NCBI GenBank assembly: GCA_009777315.1
Contig: WRMD01000002.1
Coordinates: forward strand, 10,401-74,400
Origin: Candidatus Saccharimonadota bacterium
GTDB taxonomy: Bacteria > Patescibacteriota > Saccharimonadia > Saccharimonadales > Saccharimonadaceae
Length of the DNA: 64,000 nt
Direction of reading: 5' to 3'
In this document: positions 8,537-63,659 of the stretch, in pieces
How the letters are laid out: each line of letters starts with the position of its first letter
Position numbering within the stretch: position 1 is the stretch's first letter
Notes under the pieces: generated by a model
What the model was told of the DNA's origin: nothing
The model's database searches: none
The model's input: only the letters and a program-made list of their open reading frames with translations
Translations under genes and position numbers: made by a program

Positions 8537-8625
8537 TGCTAAGAACACAGCGGTTTTCTTCCTTTCCTGAACTACGCTTAAAAAGTCAGGGAAACCCTGA
8601 ACTTTTAAGCACACTAATCTCTGCC
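8537..8625 (+). repeat. repeat module family C, copy 1 (preceded by an orphan arm inner boundary at 8520-8536)
   Basis: ctgctaagaacacagcggttttcttcctttcc...aaaaagtcagggaaaccctgaactttt aligns with 18627-18725. It contains the hairpin GTCAGG-gaaac-CCTGA. Confidence 0.6.
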
Positions 8626-8678
8626 GAGCAAATGGCCATTTGTGAGCGAGCCGGATAAGATGGGTGGGGAGGGATGGG

Positions 8679-13233: not shown

Positions 13234-13358
13234 CAAAAGAATTACATATACCCCCTCGCAAACAGAATAAATCCCGCCTGTCTTTACAGGGGGATTTTTC
13301 TTCCCCCTCGGCTAGCCGCCTGCGGGACGTTGCTCGAAAGTATATGTCAATTCTTTTG
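13234..13358 (+). repeat. repeat module family B, copy 1 (nested hairpins including an intrinsic terminator at 13271-13300)
   Basis: Outer stem caaaagaattacatatac / gtatatgtcaattcttttg. The core is caaacagaataa + hairpin + TTTTCTTCCCCCTC.GCT..CGCCT..CGGGACGTTG, shared with 18415-18544 and 31571-31722. It lies directly after rpoD. Confidence 0.65.
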
Positions 13359-13383: not shown

Positions 13384-13582
13384 CTCCTTCGCCGCTGTCT
13401 CATCGGGCTGGAATGCAGGAGAACAGTCAACTTCTTCATATTGGTGGCCCTCATCACTAGATTCAAGCACAAATCCTTCTAGCGGTGCCATACTAAGCTC
13501 GATTCTTTGGCCGAGTACCGCAAACAACCATAAGTCCTACGGCTTCTCCCTCCGCTGTGTCTACCCGTAGGGGGTGGGGAGG
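13384..13582 (+). repeat. hypervariable cassette arm R3 (solo)
   Basis: Inner boundary ctccttcgccgctgtc at 13384-13399 and TAG at 13568-13570. The outer boundary ends 3 nt before the stop of the next gene. Open frame: FAAVSSGWNAGEQSTSSYWWPSSLDSSTNPSSGAILSSILWPSTANNHKSYGFSLRCVYP*. Confidence 0.9.
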
Positions 13583-13585: not shown

Positions 13586-13951
13586 CTAAAGAAATAGCAA
13601 GATGATTATAACTCCAAGTACGATTAAAAAGATATTAATCGCACGAGAGCTGCGCTCATTCGCTTTCTTGTAAGTTTCCTCTGAGGTTGCTCTGCTAACT
13701 GTTCTGCGAGTACGCAAAGATATGATTGCCATCACGGCAAAAACCACTACCATTATGGCGATGAGTGGTATCACCAAAACCATGAGAATCCCTAAATAGC
13801 CTGCGCCGTTCATAGCGGTAATCAGACCAAGAATCAGCAGTATCATTAGCGCCATAAGCACAAACCAGAGAATAGCAAATCTCGTCCATTTACGCACCAG
13901 CTTTTGCTGCTGGTAATGCCAAGGGAGTTCAGAAGATATCTCCAGACCCAT
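13586..13951 (-). CDS. hypothetical small membrane protein (AT-rich gene boxed between two arm termini)
   Basis: 121 aa with 3 hydrophobic helices. TGgTAGAAT lies 6 nt upstream of the ATG at 13951. Confidence 0.6.
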   Translation of the reverse strand: MGLEISSELPWHYQQQKLVRKWTRFAILWFVLMALMILLILGLITAMNGAGYLGILMVLVIPLIAIMVVVFAVMAIISLRTRRTVSRATSEETYKKANERSSRAINIFLIVLGVIIILLFL

Positions 13952-13974
13952 ACTCCCATTCTACCACACCACAT

Positions 13975-14189
13975 CCTCCCCACTCCCTACGGGTAGACAC
14001 AGCGGAGGGAAGTGCCATGATTCTTGTCCATCTGGTTGTCACCCGGGTGAGTAATAGTAGCAACTAAGTGAAAGAAGTTTGAACGCATACCGTTACTCTC
14101 GAATACGCCAGAAGTCCACCAGCGCGCCTCAGTACCCTGAAGCCATACTGAGGCGGGGCTGCTCACACCTCCCGTGACAGTGGCGAAGG
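13975..14189 (-). repeat. hypervariable cassette arm L4 (solo)
   Basis: Outer boundary cctccccactccctacgggtagacacagcggaggg at 13975-14009 and inner boundary at 14176-14189. Open frame: FATVTGGVSSPASVWLQGTEARWWTSGVFESNGMRSNFFHLVATITHPGDNQMDKNHGTSLRCVYP*. Confidence 0.9.
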
Positions 14190-14300
14190 AGGAACTTTAA
14201 GCATAATCCTATTGACTTTTCATCCCGCCTGTGCTCTACTCATGGTAGACTGGGGTGAATATACCTGACGGGTGGTATCGCAATATACTTTGTATGATAT

Positions 14301-14342: not shown

Positions 14343-14419
14343 TGGTGCACCCGGCGAGATTCGAACTTACGACCTTTGGCTCCGCAAGCCAACGCTCTAT
14401 CCAGCTGAGCTACGGGTGC
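14343..14419 (-). tRNA. tRNA-Arg (anticodon GCG)
   Basis: The reverse complement is GCACCCGTAGCTCAGCTGGATAGAGCGTTGGCTTGCGGAGCCAAAGGTCGTAAGTTCGAATCTCGCCGGGTGCACCA. The anticodon loop is UUGCGGA. There is one A-C mismatch in the T stem. Confidence 0.85.
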
Positions 14420-18414: not shown

Positions 18415-18544
18415 TCATCAGGTACAGAATTTGCCCACAAACAGAATAAATCCATCCCATCGCCATGGGTGGATTTTTCTTCCCCCTCAGGCTGCCGCCT
18501 TCCGGGACGTTGTGAGGCAAATTGTACCTTGATACGGCTTTTGC
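18415..18544 (+). repeat. repeat module family B, copy 2 (terminator hairpin at 18450-18480)
   Basis: Outer stem ggtacagaatttgcc / ggcaaattgtacc plus aaaagc/gctttt. It has the same core as copies 1 and 3, and the inner hairpin has compensatory changes. Confidence 0.65.
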
Positions 18545-18597: not shown

Positions 18598-18625
18598 CCT
18601 CCCCACCCCCTATGGGTAGACACAG
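18598..18625 (-). repeat. arm remnant L5 (outer boundary only, arm body deleted)
   Basis: cctccccaccccctatgggtagacacag is followed directly by family C module copy 2. Confidence 0.7.
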
Positions 18626-18626
18626 G

Positions 18627-18725
18627 GTCCAGCTAAGAGACACCTAGCGGTTTCTCTTCCTCTTCCCTTTTAGGTAAAGTCAAAAAGGCAGGAGTGAATC
18701 CTGACCTTTTTGACGAACTAAGAAG
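18627..18725 (+). repeat. repeat module family C, copy 2
   Basis: Aligns with 8537-8625 (gctaaga.acac..agcggttt.tcttcct...aaaaag.cagg...cctgac.tttt). Confidence 0.6.
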
Positions 18726-18792: not shown

Positions 18793-19001
18793 CTCCTTCG
18801 CCACTGTCCCGACTGGTCACTTCAACGGTAGCTTACGGGAGCAATCTATTGATTTGCGTTCGTGGGCTTCATCAGCTGGTCCGACAGCTTCTTCCCTTAC
18901 GGAGGTGCGGGGTACGTCTGTCATACCAGCTGATGTTACCGCTGGGTCTAGATATGCTGGTATCTCCCTCCGCTGTGTCTACCCGTAGGGGGGTGGGGAG
19001 G
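18793..19001 (+). repeat. hypervariable cassette arm R6
   Basis: Inner boundary at 18793-18808 and TAG at 18986-18988. There is one extra G in the G-run. Open frame: FATVPTGHFNGSLREQSIDLRSWASSAGPTASSLTEVRGTSVIPADVTAGSRYAGISLRCVYP*. Confidence 0.9.
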
Positions 19002-19003
19002 TG

Positions 19004-19012
19004 TGGTAAACT
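19004..19012 (+). promoter_or_regulatory. extended -10 promoter (TGgTAAACT) abutting the arm terminus, leaderless rnhA
   Basis: The context is ggggaggTGTGGTAAACTagttgcATG. The promoter ends 6 nt before the ATG at 19019. The same sequence context occurs at 32334-32342, 39519-39527 and 13958-13966 (minus). Confidence 0.5.
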
Positions 19013-19018
19013 AGTTGC

Positions 19019-19432
19019 ATGGATTATTATACGGACGGTAGCTGTGAGCCGAACCCGGGGCTGGGTGGCTGGGCGGTGGTGACGTTGGAGGGGCCGGTGG
19101 CGCTAGGTTGCGATGAAAACACGACGAATATACGGATGGAGGGGCTGGCGCTTTTGGCTGCTATTGAGCTGTGGGAAAAGGGTGACACTATTCATACGGA
19201 TAGTCAGTTTTGGTTGAATGTGTTGACGAAGTGGGCGCCGGTGTGGGAGGCGAAAGGTTGGGTGAAGAAGGGCGGGGCGATTGCTAACTTGGAGTTGGTG
19301 CAAAAACTTTATGCGGCGTTTCGAGAGAAGAATCCGGATATAATTTGGACGCGGGCGCATGTGGGGACGGCGGGTAATGAGTTGGCTGATGAATGGGCGA
19401 ATCGGGCGCGTGAAGGCGAGACGTTAGGCTAG
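19019..19432 (+). CDS. rnhA: ribonuclease HI
   Basis: 137 aa. Motifs are YTDGSC..NPG.GGW, MEGLALLAAIE, IHTDSQ and AHVGTAGNELADEWA. Confidence 0.85.
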   Translation: MDYYTDGSCEPNPGLGGWAVVTLEGPVALGCDENTTNIRMEGLALLAAIELWEKGDTIHTDSQFWLNVLTKWAPVWEAKGWVKKGGAIANLELVQKLYAAFREKNPDIIWTRAHVGTAGNELADEWANRAREGETLG

Positions 19433-19433: not shown

Positions 19434-19663
19434 TCTCCCCACCCCCTACGGGTAGACACAGCGGAGGGACATGCCATAAAACCTAGCGTTACTGTTTACA
19501 CCGGGGACGATTCGAGGGGCATCTACAAGTGCGAAATGAACGTAGTCGTCAGAAGACAAGGATGCCGAATACCACTGCCCGTAATTAGACTGAAACGTCA
19601 GACCGTGGCCGAGGGCTGGGGCACCACCGGGAGCAAAGAAAGCCGTAGAGACAGTGGCGAAGG
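19434..19663 (-). repeat. hypervariable cassette arm L7 (left arm of element 19434-20011)
   Basis: The outer boundary starts 2 nt after the rnhA stop. The inner boundary is at 19650-19663. Open frame: FATVSTAFFAPGGAPALGHGLTFQSNYGQWYSASLSSDDYVHFALVDAPRIVPGVNSNARFYGMSLRCVYP*. Confidence 0.9.
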
Positions 19664-19791
19664 AAATGAAGACGACCTAAGCAGTTCAGCAAAGGTCGTC
19701 CTCAATACTACGATTATAGCAGTCTTATCTATAATTCCCATTTTCAAACCTTATCACGATATTCAACTCACATAAAGCATAACCCTTGTCC

Positions 19792-20011
19792 CTCCTTCGC
19801 CGCTGTCTCGGCAGATATCTTCAATCCTGGCGGCGGTCAATATGGTAGGCCAACAATCACACTTTGGTTTGCTTCGTCAGTTTTCTCGACCACTTGGGGG
19901 ACTCTCACGAACTTAAGCGACACGTCTATCTCCCCGGGCGCGAATAACCCGGGCAATTCTAAGTTCGCAGGCTTTACCCTCCGCTGTGTCTACCCGTAGG
20001 GGGTGGGGAGG
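19792..20011 (+). repeat. hypervariable cassette arm R8 (right arm of element 19434-20011)
   Basis: Inner boundary ctccttcgccgctgtc at 19792-19807 and TAG at 19997-19999. Open frame: FAAVSADIFNPGGGQYGRPTITLWFASSVFSTTWGTLTNLSDTSISPGANNPGNSKFAGFTLRCVYP*. Confidence 0.9.
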
Positions 20012-23905: not shown

Positions 23906-24128
23906 CTCCTTCGCCACTGTCTCGGCAGACTATTTTGCCCCAGCTAGAGGTTTAAGAGCTACATTCGTCGGATATTGGATGACGCCGTCTCTATGGTCCC
24001 AGGTATCTGCAAGTTTAGTCGTTGTGGTTGAAGACGCTATCCACCCGGCAATAGTTGCAAGCAACCTGACCGGACGCAAACTTGATGGCTGGACCCTTCG
24101 CTGTGTCTACCCGTAGGGGGTGGGGAGG
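23906..24128 (+). repeat. hypervariable cassette arm R9 (solo, next to tRNA-Ser)
   Basis: Inner boundary at 23906-23921 and TAG at 24114-24116. The Leu codon is ctt. Open frame: FATVSADYFAPARGLRATFVGYWMTPSLWSQVSASLVVVVEDAIHPAIVASNLTGRKLDGWTLRCVYP*. Confidence 0.9.
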
Positions 24129-24181: not shown

Positions 24182-24271
24182 GGAGAGGTGTCCGAGTGGT
24201 TTAAGGAGCACGCTTGGAAAGCGTGTGTGCGGGCAACCGTACCTGGGGTTCGAATCCCCATCTCTCCGCCA
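24182..24271 (+). tRNA. tRNA-Ser (anticodon GGA)
   Basis: GGAGAGGTGTCCGAGTGG..., anticodon loop UUGGAAA, a long variable arm, T-loop GGTTCGAATCC and encoded CCA. Confidence 0.9.
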
Positions 24272-27952: not shown

Positions 27953-28163
27953 CCTCCCCACCCCCTACGGGTAGACACAGCGGAGGGTAATGCCTATTTG
28001 TTTTGGCAGGGTATTTGTAGCCGGGCTGAACGAATTCTGTTGCATGTTAAGGCGCATAAAGTGCGTAGCCGAAGCCAAAGATGGTGTGTGCCAAGATGTA
28101 TGCGTAGATTGAGTCTGTAGGCCATTTGGAATATGAAGAGTATCTGCCGAGACAGTGGCGAAG
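27953..28163 (-). repeat. hypervariable cassette arm L10 (element 27953-28488)
   Basis: Outer boundary at 27953-27987 and inner boundary at 28151-28163. Open frame from track ORF 27965-28222: FATVSADTLHIPNGLQTQSTHTSWHTPSLASATHFMRLNMQQNSFSPATNTLPKQIGITLRCVYP*. Confidence 0.9.
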
Positions 28164-28184
28164 AGAAACTTTATAAAGTTTCTC
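28163..28184. repeat. 22-bp perfect palindrome gagaaactttataaagtttctc
   Basis: Self-complementary by inspection. A second core copy is at 28222-28237. Confidence 0.85.
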
Positions 28185-28265
28185 TCCCCACACTTACCCC
28201 TGCTAAATTGATCCAAATCCAAAACTTTATAAAGTTTCGACCTCTCCCCGGAGACTCCCGAAGCC

Positions 28266-28488
28266 CTCCTTCGCCACTGTCTCTACCGGGTTCTTTAGTC
28301 CTATAGCCTCTTATGCTGGTATGCGTAACCCGTCAGAGAATGCCACTTCGTGGACGGCGTCACTAGTCACGGTAATAAACTCTGCGGGTATGATGGTTAC
28401 TACAAATATCCGTCCGGGCGAAGGTTCTTTCGACACTAAAGCCTATGGCCTTTCCCTACGCTGTGTCTACCCGTAGGGGGTGGGGAGG
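28266..28488 (+). repeat. hypervariable cassette arm R11 (element 27953-28488)
   Basis: Inner boundary at 28266-28281 and TAG at 28474-28476. The Leu codon is cta. Open frame: FATVSTGFFSPIASYAGMRNPSENATSWTASLVTVINSAGMMVTTNIRPGEGSFDTKAYGLSLRCVYP*. Confidence 0.9.
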
Positions 28489-31570: not shown

Positions 31571-31722
31571 AAAGCTTTAAAACAAGCTGCCGGGTACAGA
31601 ATTTCTCCGCAAACAGAATAACTTCCGCCCATCGCCATGGGGGAAGTTTTCTTCCCCCTCAGGCTGCCGCCTTCCGGGACGTTGCCGGAGAAATTGTACC
31701 TCGGCGCGCTTGTTTTAAAGCT
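31571..31722 (+). repeat. repeat module family B, copy 3 (terminator hairpin at 31622-31651)
   Basis: Outer stems are aaagctttaaaacaagc / gcttgttttaaagct and ggtacagaatttctccg / cggagaaattgtacc. It has the same core as copies 1 and 2. Confidence 0.65.
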
Positions 31723-31733: not shown

Positions 31734-31948
31734 CCCCACCCCCTACGGGTAGACACAGCGGAGGGAATGGCCGTAATGCTTGTAGCGGCTTCCGGCTATA
31801 CCAGATTCTGTAGCGCTGATAGACACTCGCGTAAGAGCCGGGCGACTTGCTGCCACGTCAAGTGACGCGTTCATCCAGCGTTCTTGCTGAGATTGGCCAG
31901 TCACACCTTGTGACGACAGAAAGTAACTACTCGAGACAGTGGCGAAGG
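31734..31948 (-). repeat. hypervariable cassette arm L12 (element 31734-32331)
   Basis: The outer boundary starts ccccaccccctacggg, so the first 3 nt differ from consensus. The inner boundary is at 31935-31948. Open frame: FATVSSSYFLSSQGVTGQSQQERWMNASLDVAASRPALTRVSISATESGIAGSRYKHYGHSLRCVYP*. Confidence 0.9.
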
Positions 31949-32032
31949 AGGTCTAGCCCGCTAGCGCTCACGGGGGTAAGAAACTTTATAAAGCTTTGGA
32001 TTTAGGCTTATTTAACAGGGGTAAGTGTGAGG

Positions 32033-32056
32033 AGAGAAACTTTATAAAGTTTCTCT
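32033..32056. repeat. 24-bp perfect palindrome agagaaactttataaagtttctct
   Basis: Self-complementary by inspection. An imperfect copy is at 31980-31994. Confidence 0.85.
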
Positions 32057-32331
32057 TCGCCACTGTCTCGGAGGGGTTCTTTTGGTCGGGTACTGACATA
32101 CGGGAGCAGTCTGAGCTAACGCACTGGTGGTCTGGCTCGCTTTTCTCTAGCACAAGTCCTGCGCGTATCCGCTTAAGTGAAATAGCGATTGATCTGGCTA
32201 CTGGTACACACCAGAAAAACCATGGTAGATCCCTCCGCTGTGTCTACAGATACTCCTCCTACTCGCCTTGCAGGCTCGGACAGGACGCCCGAGGCAGGCA
32301 GAGCCTGACCTCGGGCTAGGGGGTGGGGAGG
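32053..32331 (+). repeat. hypervariable cassette arm R13 with an interrupted outer boundary
   Basis: The inner boundary ctcttcgccactgtc is at 32053-32067. The boundary is split after gtctac at 32247 by 69 nt and resumes with tagggggtggggagg at 32317. Frame from track ORF 31996-32319: FATVSEGFFWSGTDIREQSELTHWWSGSLFSSTSPARIRLSEIAIDLATGTHQKNHGRSLRCVY then RYSSYSPCRLGQDARGRQSLTSG*. Confidence 0.85.
32248..32316 (+). other. 69-nt insertion inside the arm outer boundary
   Basis: The sequence is agatactcctcctactcgccttgcaggctcggacaggacgcccgaggcaggcagagcctgacctcgggc. It contains the 8-bp hairpin gcccgagg...cctcgggc and replaces the ccg Pro codon. Confidence 0.8.
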
Positions 32332-32348
32332 TGTGGTAAAATAGGAGT

Positions 32349-38793: not shown

Positions 38794-38821
38794 GTACGAA
38801 TGGATCTTTGTCTCGCATCCT

Positions 38822-39032
38822 TCTCCCCACCCCCTACGGGTAGACACAGCGGAGGGATGCAGCCCAAGATTTAGAGTGTGTGTAGGTGGCAGTTGATATG
38901 CGAGAAGCTACAATGTCGCCTCTATTTGCCTGGTCGTCAGAGAAGAGGGAAGGGTGCCAAAAGTTAGCAGCGCCTGATTGAATGGTCACACCATTGGGCG
39001 CAAGGAAGTCGTTAGACGAGACAGTGGCGAAG
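38822..39032 (-). repeat. hypervariable cassette arm L14 (element 38822-39158)
   Basis: Outer boundary at 38822-38856 and inner boundary at 39020-39032. Open frame: FATVSSNDFLAPNGVTIQSGAANFWHPSLFSDDQANRGDIVASRISTATYTHSKSWAASLRCVYP*. Confidence 0.9.
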
Positions 39033-39058
39033 TTGGTCTAGCTCGCTAAAACTCACGG

Positions 39059-39158
39059 GAGTCGGTGTCGCAAATATCCACTCCGGTATGCATACGGGCA
39101 GCTTAGGCAAAGCTTTTGGCCATTCCCTTCGCTGTGTCTACCCGTAGGGGGTGGGGAG
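39059..39158 (+). repeat. truncated cassette arm R15 (C-terminal ~30 codons only)
   Basis: There is no inner boundary. The frame is ...GVGVANIHSGMHTGSLGKAFGHSLRCVYP* with TAG at 39145-39147. The Leu codon is ctt. Confidence 0.75.
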
Positions 39159-39172: not shown

Positions 39173-39249
39173 TGGTGAGTCGGGTGGGACTCGAACCCAC
39201 GACACCCAGATTAAGAGTCTAGTGCTCTAACCAGCTGAGCTACCGACCC
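39173..39249 (-). tRNA. tRNA-Lys (anticodon CUU)
   Basis: The reverse complement is GGGTCGGTAGCTCAGCTGGTTAGAGCACTAGACTCTTAATCTGGGTGTCGTGGGTTCGAGTCCCACCCGACTCACCA. Confidence 0.9.
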
Positions 39250-39307: not shown

Positions 39308-39517
39308 TCCCTTCGCCACTGTCACGGATAGCCAGTTTGTTGTGCAACAGGGTTTAGTTGGGCCGGGGACACGCGCTTTCTTTTGGACTTCATCTTTGAT
39401 TTCAAGTTCTAACCCAACTTACATATGGATTATGCCAACAGCAGTTGATATGTCGCGTTCTGATCGAGCCAAAGACCCTGGCTTCTCTCTCCGCTGTGTC
39501 TACCCGTAGGGGGTGGT
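39308..39517 (+). repeat. hypervariable cassette arm R16 (solo)
   Basis: Inner boundary tcccttcgccactgtc at 39308-39323 and TAG at 39507-39509. The G-tail is degenerate (gggggtggtgtg). Open frame: FATVTDSQFVVQQGLVGPGTRAFFWTSSLISSSNPTYIWIMPTAVDMSRSDRAKDPGFSLRCVYP*. Confidence 0.9.
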
Positions 39518-39534
39518 GTGTTAAAATATGGCAT

Positions 39535-39882
39535 ATGAGGAAGTCTTTTTTAATTATCCTTCACCTTGCGCTGACCATCGCTACATACACTTCTTGGCTC
39601 TGGCTGGGATGGGGTTTTGTTGCATTGATCGGCCTTGTGCATATCGCCTACCTAGAAGTTTACCAGGGGTGCCATCTGTCGAGGAAACAGTTCGGCAACT
39701 CGGAGGACAAATTTTACGAATGGTGGATGAGTAAGCTCGGCATCAAGGTCAAAGACCGCCAAAAGACGCGAATTTTCATGACTTACGTAGTGCCGCTTAT
39801 CGTCGCGGTCATTGCGCTTGTGTGGCAAGTTGTTTTGGGCTTCGCGCCGTTGCTGCAGATCCTCCCCACCCCCTATGGGTAG
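39535..39882 (+). CDS. hypothetical small membrane protein
   Basis: MRKSFLIILHLALTIATYTSWLWLGWGFVALIGLV... TGtTAAAAT ends 7 nt before the ATG. The last 7 codons and the stop (ILPTPYG*) lie inside arm terminus L17. Confidence 0.55.
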   Translation: MRKSFLIILHLALTIATYTSWLWLGWGFVALIGLVHIAYLEVYQGCHLSRKQFGNSEDKFYEWWMSKLGIKVKDRQKTRIFMTYVVPLIVAVIALVWQVVLGFAPLLQILPTPYG

Positions 39883-40072
39883 ACACAGCGGAGGGAGAAG
39901 CCGGTAGACTTGCCGCCAGTGCTACCGAGCATGTTAATTGAAGAAATATTTATAATTGGGTAGGCTGGAGGATTCGCTCCTGTCATAGACGCTGCCCACC
40001 ATGATGTGCGATCGGACATTTGAAAGACACCATTAGAAGCACTCATATAGCCACCCGAGACAGTGGCGAAGG
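39861..40072 (-). repeat. hypervariable cassette arm L17 (element 39861-40335)
   Basis: Outer boundary at 39861-39895 with the Pro codon cca (synonymous). Inner boundary at 40059-40072. Open frame: FATVSGGYMSASNGVFQMSDRTSWWAASMTGANPPAYPIINISSINMLGSTGGKSTGFSLRCVYP*. Confidence 0.9.
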
Positions 40073-40075
40073 AAA

Positions 40076-40125: not shown

Positions 40126-40335
40126 CTCCTTCGCCACTGTCTCACAGGATATCCTGCTTGTTGCTACTGGCCTACTTAGTCAATCCGCTAGAGCAACATG
40201 GTGGTCAGCTGGTAATAATACCGGTACTACGTCATCAACTATTTCTATGGGAGTGGCTGATATAACTATGGCAGAATCCGGAGCCCTAAGATCTGACGGC
40301 AGATCCCTCCGCTGTGTCTATCCGTAGGGGGTGGG
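40126..40335 (+). repeat. hypervariable cassette arm R18 (element 39861-40335)
   Basis: Inner boundary at 40126-40141 and TAG at 40324-40326. The Tyr codon is tat (synonymous). Open frame: FATVSQDILLVATGLLSQSARATWWSAGNNTGTTSSTISMGVADITMAESGALRSDGRSLRCVYP*. Confidence 0.9.
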
Positions 40336-40338
40336 ACG

Positions 40339-40874: not shown

Positions 40875-40951
40875 TGGTGGAGCAACAGGGACTCGAACCC
40901 TGGACCCCCTGCTTGCAAAGCAGGTGCTCTAGCCAACTGAGCTATTGCCCC
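40875..40951 (-). tRNA. tRNA-Ala (anticodon UGC)
   Basis: The reverse complement is GGGGCAATAGCTCAGTTGGCTAGAGCACCTGCTTTGCAAGCAGGGGGTCCAGGGTTCGAGTCCCTGTTGCTCCACCA. It has the G3:U70 pair. Confidence 0.9.
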
Positions 40952-43277: not shown

Positions 43278-43485
43278 CCTCCCCACCCCCTACGGGTAGA
43301 CACAGCGGAGGGAGAGACCTATCCATGAATTGTTAGCGTATGTACCCGGGTAGATAATTGGAGGGCCCACCCATGTATAGATTGCGGTTGCTAAAGAAGA
43401 TAATGATGATAACCACCAGTGTTCGTTTTCGGTTCGTAAGCCAGACATACCGGTCTGAAGCCAACCCGTAGTGACAGTGGCGAAG
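43278..43485 (-). repeat. hypervariable cassette arm L20 (element 43278-43818)
   Basis: Outer boundary at 43278-43312 and inner boundary at 43473-43485. Open frame: FATVTTGWLQTGMSGLRTENEHWWLSSLSSLATAIYTWVGPPIIYPGTYANNSWIGLSLRCVYP*. Confidence 0.9.
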
Positions 43486-43602
43486 TTGGTCTAGCTCGCT
43501 AAAGCTCGCGATAAAGCAGACAAAATGTCATTTTGATCTGCTTTATGCCTACCGGCGTTCGCTAGCGCTCACGGGGGTAAGAAACTTTATAAAGTTCCGA
43601 CT

Positions 43603-43818
43603 CTCCTTCGCCACTGTCACTACGGACTATTTCACCGGCGGATCAGGACTTGTATTCAGAGACCCTGCGTATGCATATTGGTGGGGCTCATCGCTAACTT
43701 CGACTACCGGTATAGGCAATACCCATATCGGCGGACCTACTCTACGCCCAGGTACAGAAGGCGTAGGTAGATACTTCGGCTTCTCCCTCCGCTGTGTCTA
43801 CCCGTAGGGGGTGGGGAG
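43603..43818 (+). repeat. hypervariable cassette arm R21 (element 43278-43818)
   Basis: Inner boundary at 43603-43618 and TAG at 43805-43807. Open frame: FATVTTDYFTGGSGLVFRDPAYAYWWGSSLTSTTGIGNTHIGGPTLRPGTEGVGRYFGFSLRCVYP*. Confidence 0.9.
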
Positions 43819-46249: not shown

Positions 46250-47854
46250 CTAATCGCCCATTCTGATCTCGACCGTGATGTGATCGAACTGGGTAGGGAC
46301 GCGATTGACCCAGAAGAAGTTGAAGCGAACGGTAGCGTTTGTGATGTCGCGGCTTTGGATGGCGCGATTGGCGTCGCTGGCGCTCCGACCGGCGACGGCT
46401 TCCTTGACGGAATCTTCGGAGATGTCGGGGCCGACGACGGTGGTGGTTTGGAGGCGGGAGGTCATTTGATTGTTAGCTTCGGAGAAATTGCCGAAGAACA
46501 TGCGGTCAAAGCCGAGGTCGAAGATTTTGGTGCTGTCTTCGCCAGCGACGCGCTCTTCTTCACGGATGCGGATGAAGGTTTCGAGGTCGGCGCGATTGAC
46601 GCCGTAACCGGTGAAGGTGGTGGTTTGGCGGATAGTAATGCGTTGGTCGGACCCGACTTCGGCGTCGACGGCGGCAGAACTGGTCGGATCGCTAGTAGAG
46701 GAGGTGAAGGCGGCGCGCGGCAGGGCGATAAGATCGGCGGCGAAGTTGTTGGCGAGCTCGGTTTCGGCGGCTTGGCGGTTGACAACAGGGAGGGCGGCAA
46801 GGGCGGAGTCGTAGTCGCTTTGAGAGACGATAGTGATAGTGCGTTTACTGCCGCCGGTGATGCTCATGGCAGTGGCGGTAAAGTTGTGGGGAGTGCCGGC
46901 CAAGGTAATGGAAAAGGCGCCGCCACTGGTGCGATTGAATTCGTCGCCGAGGGCGGTGGCACGGACGTTCAGTGTTACCTGACCAGAGTTGGCTGTGGTG
47001 GCTTCAGTGGTGCGATAAGTGTGGCTGCCGATGGTGATGGCGGTGTTGGAAGGGATGTTGGCAGGGAGCCCGGCGTAAGTGAAGGTGATCTGACCGCTGG
47101 CGTACTCGCCGATTTCACGACTACCTGTAGCAGTGAACTCGTATTCGCTGACTTTTTCGAGGGTCTCGGAGTGAAGAAGGAAGACGCCGGCTTCTGGGTT
47201 GGCCTCGCCAGCGTTACGAGTGAAGGAAATGGGTTCGTTGAAATTGTGGCGGCTGGTGCGGGCAGTAATCTCGATGGTAGCGCGGGCGGGAACAAAAACG
47301 ATGACGCTAATGATGGCAAGAATGATAACACCGATGGGGATGAGAACGAAGCGGGCGTATTTTTTAAACCAGTCCTTGAAGGATTTGACCTCTTGAGTTT
47401 CGGTGGACTTTTTGGTGTCGGCGAGCTTAACCTTGGGGACGAGGTTGCCGTCGCTGAGCGGATCAGTAGCAGCGACATCGGCAGCAGCTTCGTCTTCGAG
47501 GTCGGTGAATCCGATGGGGGGGGCGGGGTCGTCTGGCTCGTCGATGGTGCTCCCGTGACTGTCAGCTTGGTCGGGTTTAGGCGGTAGGACGGGCTTGTCA
47601 CGAAGGGACTTGGCGACGGGCAGGCCGACTTGGCCGGCTAAAGGCAAAATCTCGGGGTTGTTGCTGACGAGGACGATGGATTTTTTGCCGCGGGTGGCAA
47701 CACGAGAGAGGAGGCGGATGTTGACGATGTTGCGTAGGGCGCCGAGAGACTTCGGTAGAACTAAAACGACTAATTGAGATTTAGCGCGGGTGACTTTGGC
47801 GGAAATGGTGGTAATATCATCAGCCAAATCTAGGTAGATGGTTTCTTTAGTCAT
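46250..47854 (-). CDS. hypothetical membrane-anchored protein (between ruvX and ftsA)
   Basis: 534 aa with one TM helix (FVLIPIGVIILAIISVIVFV) and an extracytoplasmic Thr/Ser-rich region. The 509-aa plus-strand ORF is a low-complexity shadow. Confidence 0.6.
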   Translation of the reverse strand: MTKETIYLDLADDITTISAKVTRAKSQLVVLVLPKSLGALRNIVNIRLLSRVATRGKKSIVLVSNNPEILPLAGQVGLPVAKSLRDKPVLPPKPDQADSHGSTIDEPDDPAPPIGFTDLEDEAAADVAATDPLSDGNLVPKVKLADTKKSTETQEVKSFKDWFKKYARFVLIPIGVIILAIISVIVFVPARATIEITARTSRHNFNEPISFTRNAGEANPEAGVFLLHSETLEKVSEYEFTATGSREIGEYASGQITFTYAGLPANIPSNTAITIGSHTYRTTEATTANSGQVTLNVRATALGDEFNRTSGGAFSITLAGTPHNFTATAMSITGGSKRTITIVSQSDYDSALAALPVVNRQAAETELANNFAADLIALPRAAFTSSTSDPTSSAAVDAEVGSDQRITIRQTTTFTGYGVNRADLETFIRIREEERVAGEDSTKIFDLGFDRMFFGNFSEANNQMTSRLQTTTVVGPDISEDSVKEAVAGRSASDANRAIQSRDITNATVRFNFFWVNRVPTQFDHITVEIRMGD

Positions 47855-49321: not shown

Positions 49322-49539
49322 CCCCGCCACCCCCTACAGGTAGACACAGCGGAGGGGGTGGCCACGGAACTTATGGCTGCCCGAACGGACTCCCGGGTCA
49401 ATAACAGTGGCGCTAACACCTGTGTAGCTCGGTGTTGTTGCGGAGAAAAGTGAAGAGGAACGCGGAACGAACCATGTGGATTGACCAATTAGGCCGCCAC
49501 TAGCAGGATTAAAGGCGTCTGATGAGGCAGTGGCGAAGG
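49322..49539 (-). repeat. hypervariable cassette arm L22 (element 49322-49769)
   Basis: This is the most diverged boundary (ccccgccaccccctacagg, giving RCVYL*). The inner boundary is ggcagtggcgaagg. Frame from track ORF 49334-49558: FATASSDAFNPASGGLIGQSTWFVPRSSSLFSATTPSYTGVSATVIDPGVRSGSHKFRGHPLRCVYL*. Confidence 0.85.
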
Positions 49540-49546
49540 CTCGCTC

Positions 49547-49769
49547 CTCCTTCGCCACTGTCGCGAATGGATTCTTTTACATTATTGCTCCTCTAGGGCC
49601 CGGGTTGAATAACCAGTCTGATCATGTATATTGGTGGAACTCTTCACTGGCTTCATCATCAAACATAGCTAACTCCGGTATGACCGTAGCACATCTGCAT
49701 GCGGGGGCGAACAGTAGCGTCAAGTTTATTGGCTTCTCCCTCCGCTGTGTCTACCCGTAGGGGGTGGGG
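49547..49769 (+). repeat. hypervariable cassette arm R23 (element 49322-49769, only 7 nt of spacer)
   Basis: Inner boundary at 49547-49562 and TAG at 49758-49760. Open frame: FATVANGFFYIIAPLGPGLNNQSDHVYWWNSSLASSSNIANSGMTVAHLHAGANSSVKFIGFSLRCVYP*. Confidence 0.9.
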
Positions 49770-49803
49770 CAAACTCGGGCTGGGGGTGTGATAAGATAAA
49801 CAT

Positions 49804-58892: not shown

Positions 58893-61800
58893 TTAGAAGC
58901 GGGGGGCGACTTCGCGAGAAAAGGTCATGAAGGCCTGGGAGTAGTTTTGACTTTGAGCGGCGGCCCAGAGGTAGGTGTCGGAGCGGAGGTTGAAGATTTC
59001 GCTGGGCGGGTAGTTGGTGGCGGAATTGTCGAAGTGGGAGCGGTAGAGGCGGACTTGGTTGGCGATATGGGGGCCGTTGAGACGGAGCTGGCCGGTACAG
59101 ACATCACCGCTGAGCATGCTGATGTTCATCGGGGTGCCGTTGTGTTCGGAGCAGGTATTGATGGTGCCGGAGTTAGATGGAGGAACCATACCGGGGCCGC
59201 GATTGAGGCCGGCCAGCAGCCAGGAATCGACGCGGGAGACGGTGTCAATGATGTTTATGTTGTGGGCGAAAGTGAGAAGCTGGGGGATTTGGTGGATGCT
59301 GGTGTGAGGGCCGTTGTGGTAGACAACGTCTGAGCGGAAGGTAACGATGCCGGTGCTGTCGAGGATGATAGTGCGGCCTTGCGGGATGACCCAGCCTGAG
59401 TTAGTGGTGATGTTCATGTTGCCGCCGCGGATATATATAGTGCTGGCGGCGGTCGCGCCGACGACGCTGGATAGGTTGATGTCGCCGCTCATACTAAAGC
59501 CTTGCCAGCCCTCTGGGAGATCGGCCATGTCGCGGTTGGAGTAGCGGATGGAGATGTTTTCGGCGAGACTGGAGCCGACGTTGGCGCTGCCGAGAGCTGC
59601 CATGGTGCCGACGGTACAGTTGGTGTTGGCGAGAGTTTGCATGGAGAAGCGACAGGCATTGGTGATGACGCCAAAGCCGGAACCGGCGGGGGTGACGATG
59701 CTGGGGTTGCCGCCGGCAAAGGCGGCACCGCTGCCGAGGGCGGAAATGGTGCCCTGGCCGCCTTGACCGAGCGCGGCGTATTCGACCCATGAGCCCCAAG
59801 CGCTGACGGGATTATTGCGGACTTGGATGCCGGCGCGAACCGGGCCGGCGCTGAAGAAGTTGGCAGCCCAGACTTGGGTGGATGGCTTCTCGCCGATAGC
59901 TACACAAGTTGGGGTGCTGTGCCAGGCCATGTCGACATTGGTATCGTTCCAGCCTTGGTCGCCGTAGAGACTGCCACTTCCGGCAGAGCGGTTACCAACG
60001 TTGAAGCGGCGGATGGACATAGCGACACAGAACTTGGTGCCGATGGGGTGGTCGGACAATGGCGGAGTGACGCCGGGGAAGAACGAAACGACCGGGACAT
60101 TGTTTTGGGATACGGCGGTGTTACTGTTACTGACGTTGAATGGGCCGGTGCCTTCGGAGCCGGGAGCGGCTAGAGAACAGCCGAAGATGTTGCCGGGAGT
60201 ATAGCTGCCCCAAACGGCTTGACAATGGTCGTTGGCTGACGAGCCCCACCGGTTGTTTTGCTCTGGTGCGTTGTTGAAGGGGAAGGAAGGGACGTTGTAA
60301 TTGACATACCAAGAGACGATGCGCCAAGCGGAGTCGGGGCGGGTTTGGGTGGCGTAGGCGGAGCCGCCGACATCGCCGTTGACTTCGGGGCGGATGGTAA
60401 CACTGGCGTTAAACTCGATCGGGGTACCGGCGAGGACGATGGGGGCCGGAGCATCAAGGTAAAGATTGCCGGAGAGGCTGTAGTTGTAGGGGATGCCGAA
60501 GGAAGCGGTGGACTGGATGGGGCCGGGATTGGATCGCTTGACCCAGGAGTAGCGGTTTTCGAAGTAGGAGGCGGAAAGGGTGCCGGAGGAAGTACAGGTA
60601 CCGGTGTTGGATGTGTTGCCAGAAGAGCAGATGGTGGCGTTGGATGGGGTCTGGGTGCCGTAGTAGTTACAACCGCGGGTTTCGGTGGATTGGCAGCAGC
60701 TGGAGCACCAACCGCTGGGGTTTGAGAGGGTGGGAGTGGCGCAGTAACCGGAGGTCCAAATGGGGCAGGAGGCGGTGGCGGCAGAGTTGGGTGAGGTGGC
60801 AGTAGCCGGGGTGTTGTTGCGGGGGCGGAAGGTGTAATTATATTGGTGTTGGTTTTGGCGGCAGACGATGTTGCTGCCACCTGGGACACCGGGACCGCCG
60901 ACAAAATCGTTGGTGCCGGCGCCATCGCTACAGTTTTGGAAGCGCTTGCTGACGGCGTCTTGGACGGAAATAGTGTGTTGGATGTCGCGACGACCGAGAA
61001 GAGCGTTGGAGACGGTGTGGCCGGAGCCGCGCGGGTTCTGGGTGCCGGAATTGATGACGTTTTGGCCTGGTGAGGTAGGCTCCATGCCGGATTGGCCGTT
61101 TTGATTAGTGATGGTCCAAGCGTTGCGAAGGTCGGGGCTGGGGCCGGGATGGATGGTGTTAAGTTGGAGCTGAGTGCCGGGTGGGTTGGAGGCGACGCAA
61201 TTGTTGGCTAGGTTGGATTCGCCGGTAGCGCCACAGCGGGTGTGGGTGATATTAAATGAAGGGAAGTTGGAGCGGTTGGACGGGGTGGTGCGGGTGTGAA
61301 GGGCGACGAGCTGGCCAGTCCAGCCGAAAGCGATGGTGTTGCCGGGGCGGGCGTAGGCGCGCTCGGCGCTGGTATTGGTGCTGGCGCAACCGAGCTGGCC
61401 AGTGAGCCAAGAGCCGGTGGTCTGACCGGCGAGACCGGCGTGACAAGCGACATCGGCCTGGCGAGCGACCGAACCGTTAATAATAGCCTGGGCACGGATG
61501 TGACTGGAGAAGACTTCTGCGGACGGAGTAGCAGTGGGTGGGTCGCCGGGGTCGCCACCGGGGATTTCGGGCGGGTCGGCGCCACGGGTGATGGTGACTT
61601 CGGCAAAGGAGGTGGGGTTGAGAGTTTGAGTCTGCCGGATGGTGCAGGAGGTAGTGCCGCCGGGGCTGGGAGCGGCGATGTTGACGGTGACGGGAGTGGT
61701 GGTGCTGGTGCGTTCTTCGGCGCCACCAACCAAAGTGACCGTATCACTGGCTGGCGTTGCTGGAATAATACTACAGCTGCCAGAAGAGGTAGCGGAAACT

Positions 61801-63659
61801 GTCCACTCGATGTCTGCCGGTTCAGTACCGTCGTCAATGCGCTGAGCATCATGATGAAAGCCGACGCTACAGGCGACGTTACCCTCGACGTTATTTGGAA
61901 TGGTGATGGAGCTTTGGGCGGAACTGTTCCACCCTGAAACGTTGGGGCTAGAAGGCTGGGTGTTGGTGCCGGGGCAGGAGGCGGTGACGGCGGAGCGAGT
62001 CTGAAAGACCGGGTCGATAACTTCAGGGTAAATAAATATCATACTGACGTTTTGCTGCTGGTTGAGAGCTGGAGTCCAAGGCAAAGGGCCGGGAGTACGC
62101 ACGGCCGCGTTGGCAATACTGTGGACGATGGCGGCTTGAGTAGCCGTAGGCTCGGCGGCGTGTAGTAGCGCCGGAGGAAAGTTACTATAAGGCCCCTCTG
62201 GGTGCGAGATCATGGTGTCAGGAAAGAAATCACCTGTGCCTGGCTTTGGACCCTGGCAGTTGTGCATAATACTAATATAAGTGTCTGAACCAATACTGTA
62301 AGTGCCGGACGCGTTAGCACAGTTGCCGAATGAAAGCTGAGGGGCGTATGACCAGCCTTTAAGGTCGAGACCAGACGCCGTGCGGGCGGCGAAGTTGAGC
62401 CGGAGAGGGTGAGCGTCACAAATGGCCTGCGTATAGCCACCGCCGGGAGGAGAACGACGGAGGTTGTGCTCTTGACGAGAGGCGTGAACGTCCGCAGATA
62501 GCAGCCCGACGCGGCTGGCGGTGTCGGTGACGAGGGCGTAGGCGGTATGACCGATGCTATGGAGAAGGACGGAAATTCGGGTGTAAGCATAGCGATTCAT
62601 CATGGTGTCTAGGAACTGCTCCCAGCTGAGATAATCGCCACCGGAGAGGCTCTCCAGGCGAATAATGTTAATCATGCCGGCGGTGGAGGTAAAGATGTCA
62701 GTAAACTCGCCGACCTCGGTGAGCTCGGAAGCTTTATCCCAGATGCGGATTGTTGGGCCAGGGTTTGCGGCAAGGCTGTCGATTGGGATATCTCTGAGAC
62801 AACCGTCTTCGCTCTCTAGGCAGGCAACACTACCGGCTACAATGGCCGGTTCTTGTTCAAGCAGCATCCATGCCTCGCTGTTATCTACGCCGTCATTGAT
62901 AAAGTCGATGTCAGCGTGACGAGCGATTTCGCTGGCAGATAAACCTTGCTCAAGCATAGGCACAAACTCGTCGCGCAACCGCTGGCGGACAGCATCGAAG
63001 GCGGCTAGAGTGCCCTCTTCGTCTTGGTTCATGAAGTAGGGGGTGACAACTTGGGCACCGATATAGATGATGTCGCGCTGGCTGATGATGCAGGTGTCCA
63101 TTTTGTCCTGGAGAACGATGTTTTCCATGCGGACGCGGAGGAAGTAGCCGGGGCCGCCGAGCATGCTGTCGATTTGTTCGTCGGCTTCGGACTCGCTAAG
63201 ATTACGACCGAAAGCACGCATGATGTCTTGCGGGGTCATTTCGACGTGGCAGGTGTCGCTATTGTAAAGTTTGAGGGAGGCGTTTAAAACGAGGTCTTCG
63301 AGAGCTTGGCGCTCGACATCCTGCTCGAGGACAATGTTGGGGTTTAACGTGAGGTGGTGGCGGAAATCTTCGGCATTACGCTCGATTTGCTCCTGAGTGA
63401 TGGTGATGTCGCCGATGACGATGTCAGCAAGGCGAACTTGGCGGTCAGGCAGGAGGAAGGCGAGAGCGAGAACCACGAGAAGGATGACGCCAAGGCCGCC
63501 GCCAACCCAAGGGGCGAACTTTTTGAATAATGATAGTGCTTTTTGCTTTTTCTGATCGCCAAAGACGTCGCTGTTTGTGTTATTTGGCGCGGACGCCATC
63601 GGGGTAGGACCACTCGGCGCTGCCGATGGAGTTGCCCCTGTACCATTTACCTCATCCAT
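58893..63659 (-). CDS. giant (1588 aa) membrane-anchored extracellular protein
   Basis: N-terminal TM helix GGGLGVILLVVLALAFLL, a SurA_N-like segment, and long Ser/Thr/Asn/Gly/Cys-rich regions. The C-terminal repeats suggest a beta-helix. TGcTATAAT ends 7 nt before the ATG. Confidence 0.75.
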   Translation of the reverse strand: MDEVNGTGATPSAAPSGPTPMASAPNNTNSDVFGDQKKQKALSLFKKFAPWVGGGLGVILLVVLALAFLLPDRQVRLADIVIGDITITQEQIERNAEDFRHHLTLNPNIVLEQDVERQALEDLVLNASLKLYNSDTCHVEMTPQDIMRAFGRNLSESEADEQIDSMLGGPGYFLRVRMENIVLQDKMDTCIISQRDIIYIGAQVVTPYFMNQDEEGTLAAFDAVRQRLRDEFVPMLEQGLSASEIARHADIDFINDGVDNSEAWMLLEQEPAIVAGSVACLESEDGCLRDIPIDSLAANPGPTIRIWDKASELTEVGEFTDIFTSTAGMINIIRLESLSGGDYLSWEQFLDTMMNRYAYTRISVLLHSIGHTAYALVTDTASRVGLLSADVHASRQEHNLRRSPPGGGYTQAICDAHPLRLNFAARTASGLDLKGWSYAPQLSFGNCANASGTYSIGSDTYISIMHNCQGPKPGTGDFFPDTMISHPEGPYSNFPPALLHAAEPTATQAAIVHSIANAAVRTPGPLPWTPALNQQQNVSMIFIYPEVIDPVFQTRSAVTASCPGTNTQPSSPNVSGWNSSAQSSITIPNNVEGNVACSVGFHHDAQRIDDGTEPADIEWTVSATSSGSCSIIPATPASDTVTLVGGAEERTSTTTPVTVNIAAPSPGGTTSCTIRQTQTLNPTSFAEVTITRGADPPEIPGGDPGDPPTATPSAEVFSSHIRAQAIINGSVARQADVACHAGLAGQTTGSWLTGQLGCASTNTSAERAYARPGNTIAFGWTGQLVALHTRTTPSNRSNFPSFNITHTRCGATGESNLANNCVASNPPGTQLQLNTIHPGPSPDLRNAWTITNQNGQSGMEPTSPGQNVINSGTQNPRGSGHTVSNALLGRRDIQHTISVQDAVSKRFQNCSDGAGTNDFVGGPGVPGGSNIVCRQNQHQYNYTFRPRNNTPATATSPNSAATASCPIWTSGYCATPTLSNPSGWCSSCCQSTETRGCNYYGTQTPSNATICSSGNTSNTGTCTSSGTLSASYFENRYSWVKRSNPGPIQSTASFGIPYNYSLSGNLYLDAPAPIVLAGTPIEFNASVTIRPEVNGDVGGSAYATQTRPDSAWRIVSWYVNYNVPSFPFNNAPEQNNRWGSSANDHCQAVWGSYTPGNIFGCSLAAPGSEGTGPFNVSNSNTAVSQNNVPVVSFFPGVTPPLSDHPIGTKFCVAMSIRRFNVGNRSAGSGSLYGDQGWNDTNVDMAWHSTPTCVAIGEKPSTQVWAANFFSAGPVRAGIQVRNNPVSAWGSWVEYAALGQGGQGTISALGSGAAFAGGNPSIVTPAGSGFGVITNACRFSMQTLANTNCTVGTMAALGSANVGSSLAENISIRYSNRDMADLPEGWQGFSMSGDINLSSVVGATAASTIYIRGGNMNITTNSGWVIPQGRTIILDSTGIVTFRSDVVYHNGPHTSIHQIPQLLTFAHNINIIDTVSRVDSWLLAGLNRGPGMVPPSNSGTINTCSEHNGTPMNISMLSGDVCTGQLRLNGPHIANQVRLYRSHFDNSATNYPPSEIFNLRSDTYLWAAAQSQNYSQAFMTFSREVAPRF

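Follow-up and report, generated by a model that had tools for sequence, protein, structure and literature searches.

The present analysis considers a stretch of 64,000 nucleotides from a Candidatus Saccharimonadota bacterium (contig WRMD01000002.1, positions 10,401 to 74,400 of the forward strand; the whole of this stretch is referred to below as the window), the intergenic regions of which contain many copies of a short repeated element, here termed an arm. Each arm comprises a 16-nt 5' boundary (CTCCTTCGCCACTGTC, read as the codons S-F-A-T-V), about 150 variable nucleotides, and a 3' boundary of about 38 nt (TCCCTCCGCTGTGTCTACCCGTAGGGGGTGGGGAG) that reads S-L-R-C-V-Y-P-stop and then continues for some 13 G-rich nucleotides. 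The window is colinear with, and 99.99% identical to, two contigs of the ENA assembly ERZ27257348, and its gene content (Obg, UvrD, FtsA, RuvX, YceG, RRF, L25 and DnaG) is typical of Saccharibacteria and the Candidate Phyla Radiation (CPR). An nhmmer model of the arms located 20 complete arms, one 5'-truncated arm and two remnants, spanning 5.6-49.8 kb of the window, with every arm being intergenic (Table 1). The 16-nt boundary was found in 20 copies, as compared with 0.06 expected by chance. Nine sites hold head-to-head pairs, including one with a truncated partner and one with a remnant only, with spacers of 5-135 nt separating the two members of a pair; the remaining arms are single. Seven further arms lie on another contig of the same sample, along with recA and dprA, and the density over the window and this contig is approximately one arm per 2.5-3 kb.

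The focal element of this study, at 43281-43816, consists of two arms, A16 and A17, placed head to head around a 114-nt spacer. A17 reads SFATVTTDYF...GFSLRCVYP, with the stop being followed by GGGGGTGGGGAG. The spacer contains a hairpin (approximately 43511-43547) and a palindrome with the core ACTTTATAAAGT (43584-43595), and holds neither a start codon in the frame of the arms nor a promoter-like site directed at either of them. Across the window, a palindrome of the form NNN-GAAACTTTATAAAGTTTC-NNN with a covarying outer stem occurs in eight copies, found only in spacers or directly upstream of arms. The hairpin potential of the 3' boundary was not significant (z = -0.7).

Open frames that cannot be expressed in place

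A preliminary description of this DNA had presented the arms as promoterless, start-less and frame-intact copies of part of a gene, and all three properties were borne out. Among the 55 unique arms of the window and related contigs, arm length is a multiple of three in 54, and the coding frame is free of stop codons in 54, as compared with the other five frames, which are open in only 2.5% of cases (binomial P ~1e-85). Upstream of SFATV, the arm frame closes within 2-43 codons, with no ATG, GTG or TTG before the arm. In A17, the open frame extends up to a TAG-TGA, 43 codons upstream rather than to a TGA about 25 codons before FATV as had been described, and contains no in-frame ATG, GTG or TTG; A16 meets a stop two codons upstream. 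The arm at 28266 (A10) meets a TAA 20 codons upstream, again with no start before the arm, as had been noted, this TAA lying at approximately 28204-28206 (28207-28209 in the preliminary description). Promoter-like sites lie upstream of 2 of the 20 window arms, which is the background rate. The claim that no Shine-Dalgarno sequence precedes any arm was too broad, as the boundary of the partner, read in reverse complement, provides AAGGAG a few nucleotides upstream of the arms of tight pairs; a start codon is still absent. When the window was scanned in all frames with a profile of the whole domain to which the arms belong (see below), the N-terminal part of this domain was not found, and the window contains no expression site, as first proposed.

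Constraint on arm interiors and boundaries

The arm interiors share only 23-27% amino-acid identity. The proportion of synonymous differences (pS) is 0.75, and thus saturated, and that of non-synonymous differences (pN) is 0.555, with pS exceeding pN in each of the 171 pairs. Near-saturation is seen at all three codon positions, and the columns of conserved Gly, Ser, Trp, Pro and Lys residues vary synonymously. As pS is greater than pN in all pairs and as these residues are kept by means of synonymous codons, the interiors are selected as protein. In the boundary codons, pS is 0.058, and nucleotide conservation drops abruptly past the GGGGAG of the 3' boundary; the boundaries are therefore constrained, or homogenized, as DNA. 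Some 13 nt beyond the stop codon are conserved at the nucleotide level, in agreement with the conserved flanks that had been described as running past the stop. Partner arms were not significantly more alike than non-partners (27% vs 23.5% amino-acid identity, p = 0.08).

The encoded segment and its full-length relatives

The arms encode the last ~66 residues of a Fib_succ_major (FISUMP) domain of about 300-370 amino acids, corresponding to positions ~250-317 of 317 in a full-domain profile and to 125-186 of 187 in the Pfam model. The N-terminal four fifths or so of the domain are missing from every arm. The preliminary description was thus right that the arms lack the beginning of the domain, but what they retain is its last fifth to third and not its C-terminal half. 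When single arms were compared with Pfam PF09603 and TIGR02145, scores fell below threshold, with one of five arms scoring weakly (E 0.02-0.03, positions 125-186 of 187), whereas the full-length relatives P0026 and P0154 exceeded the Pfam cut-off (40-41 bits vs 33.9, positions 5-186 of 187).

A profile built from 19 window arms and searched against 1.84 billion representative proteins gave 325 matches, of which 150 were listed. Among the matches listed, 37 are short, and about 30 are clusters consisting of an arm only, i.e. arms that had been called as open reading frames (ORFs) by accident. A second group comprises long Saccharibacterial surface proteins, with a signal or anchor, Ig/IPT repeats and one or more FISUMP-type domains, that end in an arm-like segment. 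In the AlphaFold model of one full-length relative (mean pLDDT 75.6), the residues equivalent to an arm form the last four to five beta-strands. A Foldseek search with this model returned a phage FISUMP protein as the sole significant match, followed by a weak match to a DUF1566 protein, these two being the best viral matches; in the PDB, the fold search gave nothing significant (best 4eps, E 0.22) and no sequence relative was present. DUF1566 and DUF823 domains, together with Fib_succ_major domains, form the CLec2 class of targets of diversity-generating retroelements (DGRs), in which this same C-terminal stretch serves as the variable region, constant residues being found at either end (PMC5758913). 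The arms, being the last 66 columns of full-length FISUMP, share this feature of a variable region formed by the C-terminal segment of a CLec2 domain. Truncated arm-like ORFs with variant boundaries (SLRCLFP, SLRCIFP or GTVASG...TVRCVFP) were also seen in other metagenomes (P0017, P0018, P0020, P0022, P0029, P0032, P0038, P0048, P0059, P0089, P0090 and P0098), and this suggests that there may be related families of cassettes with boundaries of other sequence.

Only one long protein among the matches listed contains both FATV and SLRCVYP-stop, judged at the amino-acid level. This protein, P0025 (MCL2095134.1), has 877 residues, is annotated as an IPT/TIG domain-containing protein of Candidatus Saccharibacteria, and ends in ...WRSSFATVTTG...GHSLRCVYP (TFWRSSFATVTTGHLDPRSPGLTGQSTGHANWWATSLLSGEGGISVYLTSTDIGPGTAPVWVKFRGHSLRCVYP) behind an N-terminal FISUMP part, although P0025 itself has no Pfam match. 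Its C-terminal cassette is 38-47% identical to known arms, and is thus as divergent from them as the arms are among themselves. Ordinary full-length paralogues end in FG(T/A)VS...(S/T)VRCV(F/Y)P, and the arm boundaries are absent from them at the DNA level (L014). The accession of P0025 lies 19 numbers after that of MCL2095115.1 (locus tag FWH13_03270), an arm mis-called as an ORF, and the full-length FISUMP paralogue P0026 (MCL2094709.1) falls in the same accession range; two further FISUMP paralogues bear FWH13 locus tags. Judged by these neighboring accessions, P0025, the MCL2095115.1 arm and P0026 are likely to come from one metagenome-assembled genome (MAG). The search for a full-length gene with the boundaries, which the preliminary description had called for, yielded P0025 as a candidate at the protein level and no such gene in the window's own contigs.

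Stability, composition and mosaic flanks

Orthologous arms from different samples showed one difference in 1449 nt, as compared with 128 in 8631 nt in their flanks (p = 8e-8), and the flanks of unchanged arms differ by 1-2.7% between strains. Hypermutation of the arms was rejected on this basis, and the arms share with silent-cassette systems the stability of the donors.

The composition of the arms differs from that of the genome in which they lie. In the window, the GC skew at third codon positions (GC3 skew, sense strand) is +0.70 for genes on the plus strand and -0.68 for genes on the minus strand, with an extreme replication-strand bias also being seen in contig L026, and the plus-strand GC skew is approximately 0.3 throughout, far above typical bacterial values. 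Plus-strand skew amounts to 0.33 in genes and 0.19 in other intergenic DNA but to 0.03 in arms, where third codon positions show a skew of about -0.1 in both orientations. Arm GC content is likewise ~0.50 regardless of that of the host contig (0.43-0.57). Inversion of pairs was considered as the reason for the missing skew and was rejected, since single arms are also unskewed. As the arms carry neither the strand bias nor the GC content of the host, the divergence between them presumably did not accumulate at their present sites; relocation, overwriting or import of cassettes would have to outpace the equilibration of composition, yet proceed more slowly than strain divergence. Such compositional decoupling in an extremely strand-biased genome offers a means, relying on sequence only, of detecting cassette turnover.

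The modules that flank the arms are mosaic, with breakpoints at the boundaries. One arm of contig L012 combines the upstream module of A01 with the downstream module of A11 around an unrelated interior. In L008 (2090-2972), the genes on either side of an arm pair are inverted duplicates, with nearly 100% identity over the promoter, the start and the first ~100 nt as far as the 3' boundary; the arm interiors enclosed by these near-identical outer flanks are unrelated.

Distribution and neighboring features

Outside the window, a 22-mer of the boundary was found only in termite-gut metagenome contigs and in one contig of a termite-gut MAG, and it was absent from the viral contigs searched. No synteny was detected between the window and other arm-bearing contigs. 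One arm pair with surroundings of 43-45% GC was recovered in three independent assemblies (L001, L010 and L020); the contig WRAN01000031.1 was binned in a Firmicutes MAG ('Defluviitaleaceae') that also carries a partial FISUMP protein (P0152), and is probably a mis-binned Saccharibacteria contig.

Table 1 Arms and associated features, by position in the window.
Feature	Position	Strand	Remarks
Arm A01	5622-5826	-	pairs with A02; strong sigma70-like promoter and hairpin 56-63 nt upstream
Arm A02	5961-6183	+	pairs with A01
tRNA gene near arm	7978-8054
Weak remnant	8520-8603	+	5' boundary, then unrelated sequence; G-rich tail near 8660-8675
Terminator-like hairpin module	13257-13326
Arm A03	13384-13579	+	single
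Extended -10 box outside 3' boundary	13950-13977
Arm A04	13978-14191	-	single
tRNA gene near arm	14343-14419
Terminator-like hairpin module	18421-18529
Arm A05	18793-18997	+	remnant of partner's 3' boundary at 18601-18627 (-)
Extended -10 box outside 3' boundary	18998-19018
Arm A06	19437-19665	-	pairs with A07
Arm A07	19792-20008	+	pairs with A06
Arm A08	23906-24125	+	single
tRNA gene near arm	24182-24271
Arm A09	27956-28166	-	pairs with A10
Arm A10	28266-28485	+	pairs with A09; R11 of the preliminary description
Terminator-like hairpin module	31593-31701
Arm A11	31734-31950	-	pairs with A20
Arm A20	32052-32334	+	3' boundary interrupted by insertion of ~68 nt (32250-32317)
Extended -10 box outside 3' boundary	32335-32348
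Arm A12	38825-39035	-	G-rich tail GGGGAGAAGG immediately 5' of the ATG (38818) of an M50 peptidase gene
5'-truncated arm	39045-39156	+	partner of A12; model positions 106-211
tRNA gene near arm	39173-39249
Arm A13	39308-39518	+	single
Arm A14	39864-40074	-	pairs with A15
Arm A15	40126-40336	+	pairs with A14
tRNA gene near arm	40875-40951
Arm A16, left arm of focal pair	43281-43488	-	NFATVTTGWL...GLSLRCVYP*; 3' boundary at left end, 5' boundary (reverse complement) at 43473-43488
In-frame TAG-TGA closing the A17 frame	43469-43474	+	43 codons before the S of SFATV
Focal spacer between the two 5' boundaries	43489-43602		114 nt
5' boundary of A17	43603-43618	+	CTCCTTCGCCACTGTC, codons S-F-A-T-V
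Arm A17, right arm of focal pair	43603-43816	+	SFATVTTDYFTGGSGLVFRDPAYAYWWGSSLTSTTGIGNTHIGGPTLRPGTEGVGRYFGFSLRCVYP; stop TAG at 43805-43807
3' boundary of A17	43779-43818	+	TCCCTCCGCTGTGTCTACCCGTAGGGGGTGGGGAG, ~38-40 nt; all codon positions and ~13 nt beyond the stop conserved
Arm A18	49325-49541	-	pairs with A19; 5-nt spacer
Arm A19	49547-49769	+	pairs with A18
Extended -10 box outside 3' boundary	49774-49803

Several further observations concern the surroundings of the arms. The window has six tRNA genes, five of which are found at distances of ~60-540 nt from an arm or arm remnant, and an RNase HI gene (19019-19432) fits exactly between the end of A05 (18997) and the start of A06 (19437). 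The insertion in A20 carries a GC-rich hairpin (GCCCGAGGCAGGCAGAGCCTGACCTCGGGC) and interrupts the 3' boundary between GTCTAC and TAGGGGG; it may represent a second small repeat that aims at the 3' boundary site. A separate repeat module, consisting of a terminator-like hairpin followed by TTCTTCCCCCTC..GCCGCC.., recurs beside arm ends in several species (also L004, L007 and L012), and the two ENA contigs of the window's genome break at this module.

As to signals of transcription and translation, A01 is preceded (5827-5960) by a strong sigma70-type promoter (TTGACT-17-TGCTATACT) and by a hairpin (CCCCTGTTACAACAGGGG), both of which are conserved in a second species (L012 10850-10943) despite the different arm interiors; transcription of the next gene (4714-5427) may start from this promoter and run through the arm. 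Extended -10 boxes (TGnTAnAAT) are often found beyond the G-rich tail, reading outward to the neighboring gene. The tail of A12 lies where a Shine-Dalgarno sequence would be expected for the ATG of the M50 peptidase gene (38818-38834). Elsewhere in the window, an ORF of 1588 residues (58893-63659, minus strand) has no Pfam match, and one of 534 residues (46250-47854, minus strand), beside an FtsA-like gene, has a weak match to Baseplate_J. On the minus strand at 8679-9653 lies a XerC/D-type recombinase gene, the catalytic box of which, RHSFATD, gives a chance 14/16 match to the boundary at 8823-8838; this ORF is missing from the ENA gene calls for its contig.

The arms as proposed silent cassettes

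The layout of the arms, i.e. truncated, start-less and promoter-less copies with an intact frame and with flanks that show nucleotide-level conservation past the stop codon, corresponds to that of silent donor cassettes, and is supported by the results above. We lean, if not strongly, towards the explanation that these dispersed C-terminal cassettes recombine into one or more adhesin genes, in the very segment that DGRs diversify in this domain family. The arms would then form a genome-wide archive of 'functional pseudogenes' for a Saccharibacterial surface protein with a C-terminal Fib_succ_major (FISUMP)/DUF1566 domain. An arm is not expressible where it is located; by copying or swapping, through non-reciprocal or double-crossover recombination, it would reach one or a few P0025-type genes, with the 16-nt and ~38-nt boundaries serving as homology or recognition sites. 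The recipient would encode a signal peptide, Ig/IPT repeats and the lectin-type domain, and a cassette swap would change the binding tip of an adhesin in an epibiotic bacterium. The recombination itself, as well as its direction, its enzyme and its biological role, are parts of this explanation that we infer. Reciprocal site-specific inversion or deletion between dispersed copies is unlikely, as housekeeping regions would be rearranged, against the strand bias and the colinear assemblies; copy-paste conversion or double-crossover exchange of cassettes remains as the mode. The presence of recA and dprA on an arm-bearing contig of the same sample is counted as support for recombination. The dispersed donor library that had been proposed in the preliminary description is thus consistent with the donor layout, the selection at the protein level, the stability of the arms and the protein P0025, even though no recombination event was seen.

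Several points weigh against cassette recombination and should be considered when referring to this explanation. No recombinant or chimeric sequence was found, and two independent assemblies of the genome are colinear and 99.99% identical. The longest stretch common to non-orthologous arms is at most 14 nt, leaving no trace of recent copy-paste between arms. That P0025 shares the boundaries of the arms is shown only for the amino-acid sequence, and no P0025-type gene was found in the window, in L026, or beside any of the ~40 arms on the 21 related metagenome contigs surveyed, nor in the ~80 kb of sequence that was covered from the window's own genome. A boundary of 16 nt is short for RecA-dependent exchange, and strict head-to-head pairing and the spacer palindrome are not accounted for by gene conversion. 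Finally, approximately one arm per 3 kb would mean a library far larger than any known bacterial one.

A wider proposal, which we regard as possible but rather unlikely, is that the arms are the germline counterpart of a DGR, in which hundreds of cassettes (~7% of a genome of ~1 Mb), each the equivalent of a DGR variable region, are swapped at the 16-nt and 38-nt boundaries into a lectin-type adhesin and circulate among orientations, loci and co-resident Saccharibacteria species. Such circulation is suggested by cassettes that lack the strand bias and GC content of the host, together with boundaries that are identical across species of different GC content. Passage between species could proceed, for example, via transformation and RecA/DprA, and would give rise to a receptor-binding library shared by the community.

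Like other members of the CPR, Saccharibacteria live attached to host bacteria, and their host recognition and host switching are largely unknown. If the explanation by silent cassettes is true, a large stored library of binding tips would be a concrete and testable way to vary host range or to evade recognition, and the arms would be, as far as our literature search shows, the first cassette-type variation system in the CPR radiation and by far the densest known in bacteria.

Alternative explanations

We weighed four rivals, in which the arms are MITE-like, are a component of a DGR, form a shufflon or act in place, and each of these fails at least one tested feature. The pairs, at about 450-550 bp, could be non-autonomous selfish elements that resemble miniature inverted-repeat transposable elements (MITEs), with the 38-nt 3' boundaries as terminal inverted repeats; these would have arisen from the 3' end of a FISUMP gene and spread in intergenic DNA, with no role in protein variation. 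The pairs are indeed intergenic, are ended by inverted 38-nt repeats, fold into long hairpins and keep a constant architecture across contigs with GC contents from 0.43 to 0.57, and arm composition is foreign to the host genome. We nonetheless consider such an origin improbable, as no target-site duplications were seen, as the 55 arms include no near-identical copies (the longest common interior stretch being at most 14 nt), as no transposase was found in ~80 kb and as six arms are single; moreover, the open frame and the amino-acid constraint of the interiors are not expected of a non-coding element. Alternatively, the arms might be part of a DGR, as remote variable regions or template repeats served by a distant reverse transcriptase. 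CPR bacteria commonly carry DGRs, what DGRs diversify in DUF1566/Fib_succ_major targets is the segment found in the arm, and the constant residues at both ends and the GC-rich element past the stop are as in a DGR variable region (PMC5758913). However, variation among arms involves all bases and codon positions, is not adenine-specific and includes in-frame indels, which, together with the stability of the arms, rules out their mutagenesis by a DGR. Arms are identical between strains, the flanks of which differ by 1-2.7%, and no template/variable pair was seen, with no two arms sharing more than 14 nt. With the window and L026 containing no reverse transcriptase, with the 3' boundary lacking a significant hairpin and with the rest of the target protein missing from the arms, involvement of a DGR is very improbable.

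A shufflon, in which a tyrosine recombinase would invert DNA at the 16-nt boundaries and fuse different arms to the constant 5' part of a gene, appears even harder to sustain, and we consider it the least probable of the four. The boundaries do stand exactly at the junction between constant and variable sequence, inverted face to face like sfx sites, and the window contains the XerC/D-type gene described above. Yet the arms are scattered among housekeeping genes over at least 44 kb and not beside an expression gene, the assemblies are colinear, and the sole recombinase resembles a housekeeping Xer. Inversions would also flip essential regions, while the plus-strand GC skew keeps one sign in every 2-kb window except 24-26 kb (-0.06) and the GC3 skew of genes tracks the strand (about +/-0.7). 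The arms might instead act in place, either by unconventional translation (non-AUG initiation or coupling) or as DNA or RNA elements such as insulators, terminators or suppliers of promoters or ribosome-binding sites, with the coding appearance being inherited. Whole intergenic regions are filled by arms, A01 and the arm of L012 have in common a strong conserved promoter and a hairpin upstream, the G-rich tail of A12 stands at the ribosome-binding-site position of the next gene, and extended -10 boxes often follow the 3' boundary. We consider action in place quite improbable, given that start codons are absent and promoters are not enriched, that a piece of 66 residues provides only the last 4-5 beta-strands of a domain of ~300 residues, that amino-acid constraint with saturated synonymous sites is unexpected for an RNA or DNA element, and that an Rfam scan detected tRNAs only and no known RNA family. 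Orphan C-terminal modules of the Rhs/CdiA type follow the main gene directly downstream, share its orientation and are each accompanied by an immunity gene. The arms do not fit this pattern: they are dispersed, occur in both orientations, and have neither a main gene nor a small ORF paired with them.

Comparison with known systems

The preliminary description had held the scattered arrangement of the arms to be without precedent. This needs correction, as dispersed truncated donors are known for msp2 and msp3 of Anaplasma (PMC6341658) and for MgPar of Mycoplasma genitalium (PMC3004944). The functional pseudogenes of msp2 and msp3 in Anaplasma marginale and A. ovis are truncated copies that are not expressible in place (PMC6341658), as is the case for the arms. 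Anaplasma, however, has 7-8 donors per gene, which are truncated at both ends, have long conserved flanks and serve an outer-membrane porin-like antigen, whereas the arms number approximately one per 3 kb, are truncated only at the 5' end, carry their own stop codon, are delimited by boundaries of 16 and 38 nt, form head-to-head pairs and belong to a lectin-type domain, with their recombination being deduced and not observed. In Mycoplasma genitalium, the MgPar sequences take up several percent of a minimal genome as dispersed partial copies of the adhesin genes mgpB and mgpC and recombine with the expression operon (PMC3004944, PMC2169797). The arms are likewise dispersed partial copies, of a putative adhesin gene, in a small genome, but the nine MgPar sequences are 1-2 kb long, highly similar to the expressed genes and without sharp short boundaries, while the arms measure ~215 nt, have interiors of 23-27% amino-acid identity and have exact short boundaries.

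In the vls system of Borrelia burgdorferi, vlsE is accompanied by 15 silent promoter-less cassettes flanked by 17-bp direct repeats, which recur in the expression site, and the donors are unchanged (PMC2632889). The arms resemble these cassettes in being promoter-less, in their short flanking repeats and in their unchanged state. The vls cassettes nonetheless lie beside vlsE, on a linear plasmid, as one contiguous array with 90-96% identity to vlsE, unlike the arms, which are dispersed, very divergent and include the C-terminus and the stop codon. Alternative C-terminal segments that start at a short repeat at the junction between constant and variable parts, head to head, are also found in R64-type shufflons and invertible tail-fibre segments; those segments are, however, contiguous with the expressed gene and next to a dedicated recombinase, whereas housekeeping genes lie between the arms and the strand bias speaks against inversion. 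The pilS loci of Neisseria follow the same silent-cassette logic as that proposed for the arms.

At the level of the protein, the arms are related to DGR targets of the CLec2 type, such as Legionella LdtA, in which a C-terminal segment of ~45-66 residues is constant at its ends and variable in its middle, the latter forming the binding surface (PMC5758913, PMC4159848). The arms correspond to the same segment of the same domain family. A DGR, however, uses a single template and adenine-specific reverse transcription to generate diversity de novo, while the diversity of the arms is stored as many germline copies with no adenine bias, and no reverse transcriptase is found in the window or L026.

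Our literature search found no paper that describes such a cassette system in Saccharibacteria or Patescibacteria. As compared with the systems above, what is new is the CPR/Saccharibacteria lineage, the protein family, the coincidence of the cassette with a DGR variable region, the short and exact boundaries with the stop codon inside them, the pairing in inverted orientation, the density of arms, and the compositional evidence for turnover. If the arms do act as silent cassettes, two unrelated routes to variation, i.e. stored cassettes and mutagenic reverse transcription, would have converged on one protein scaffold.

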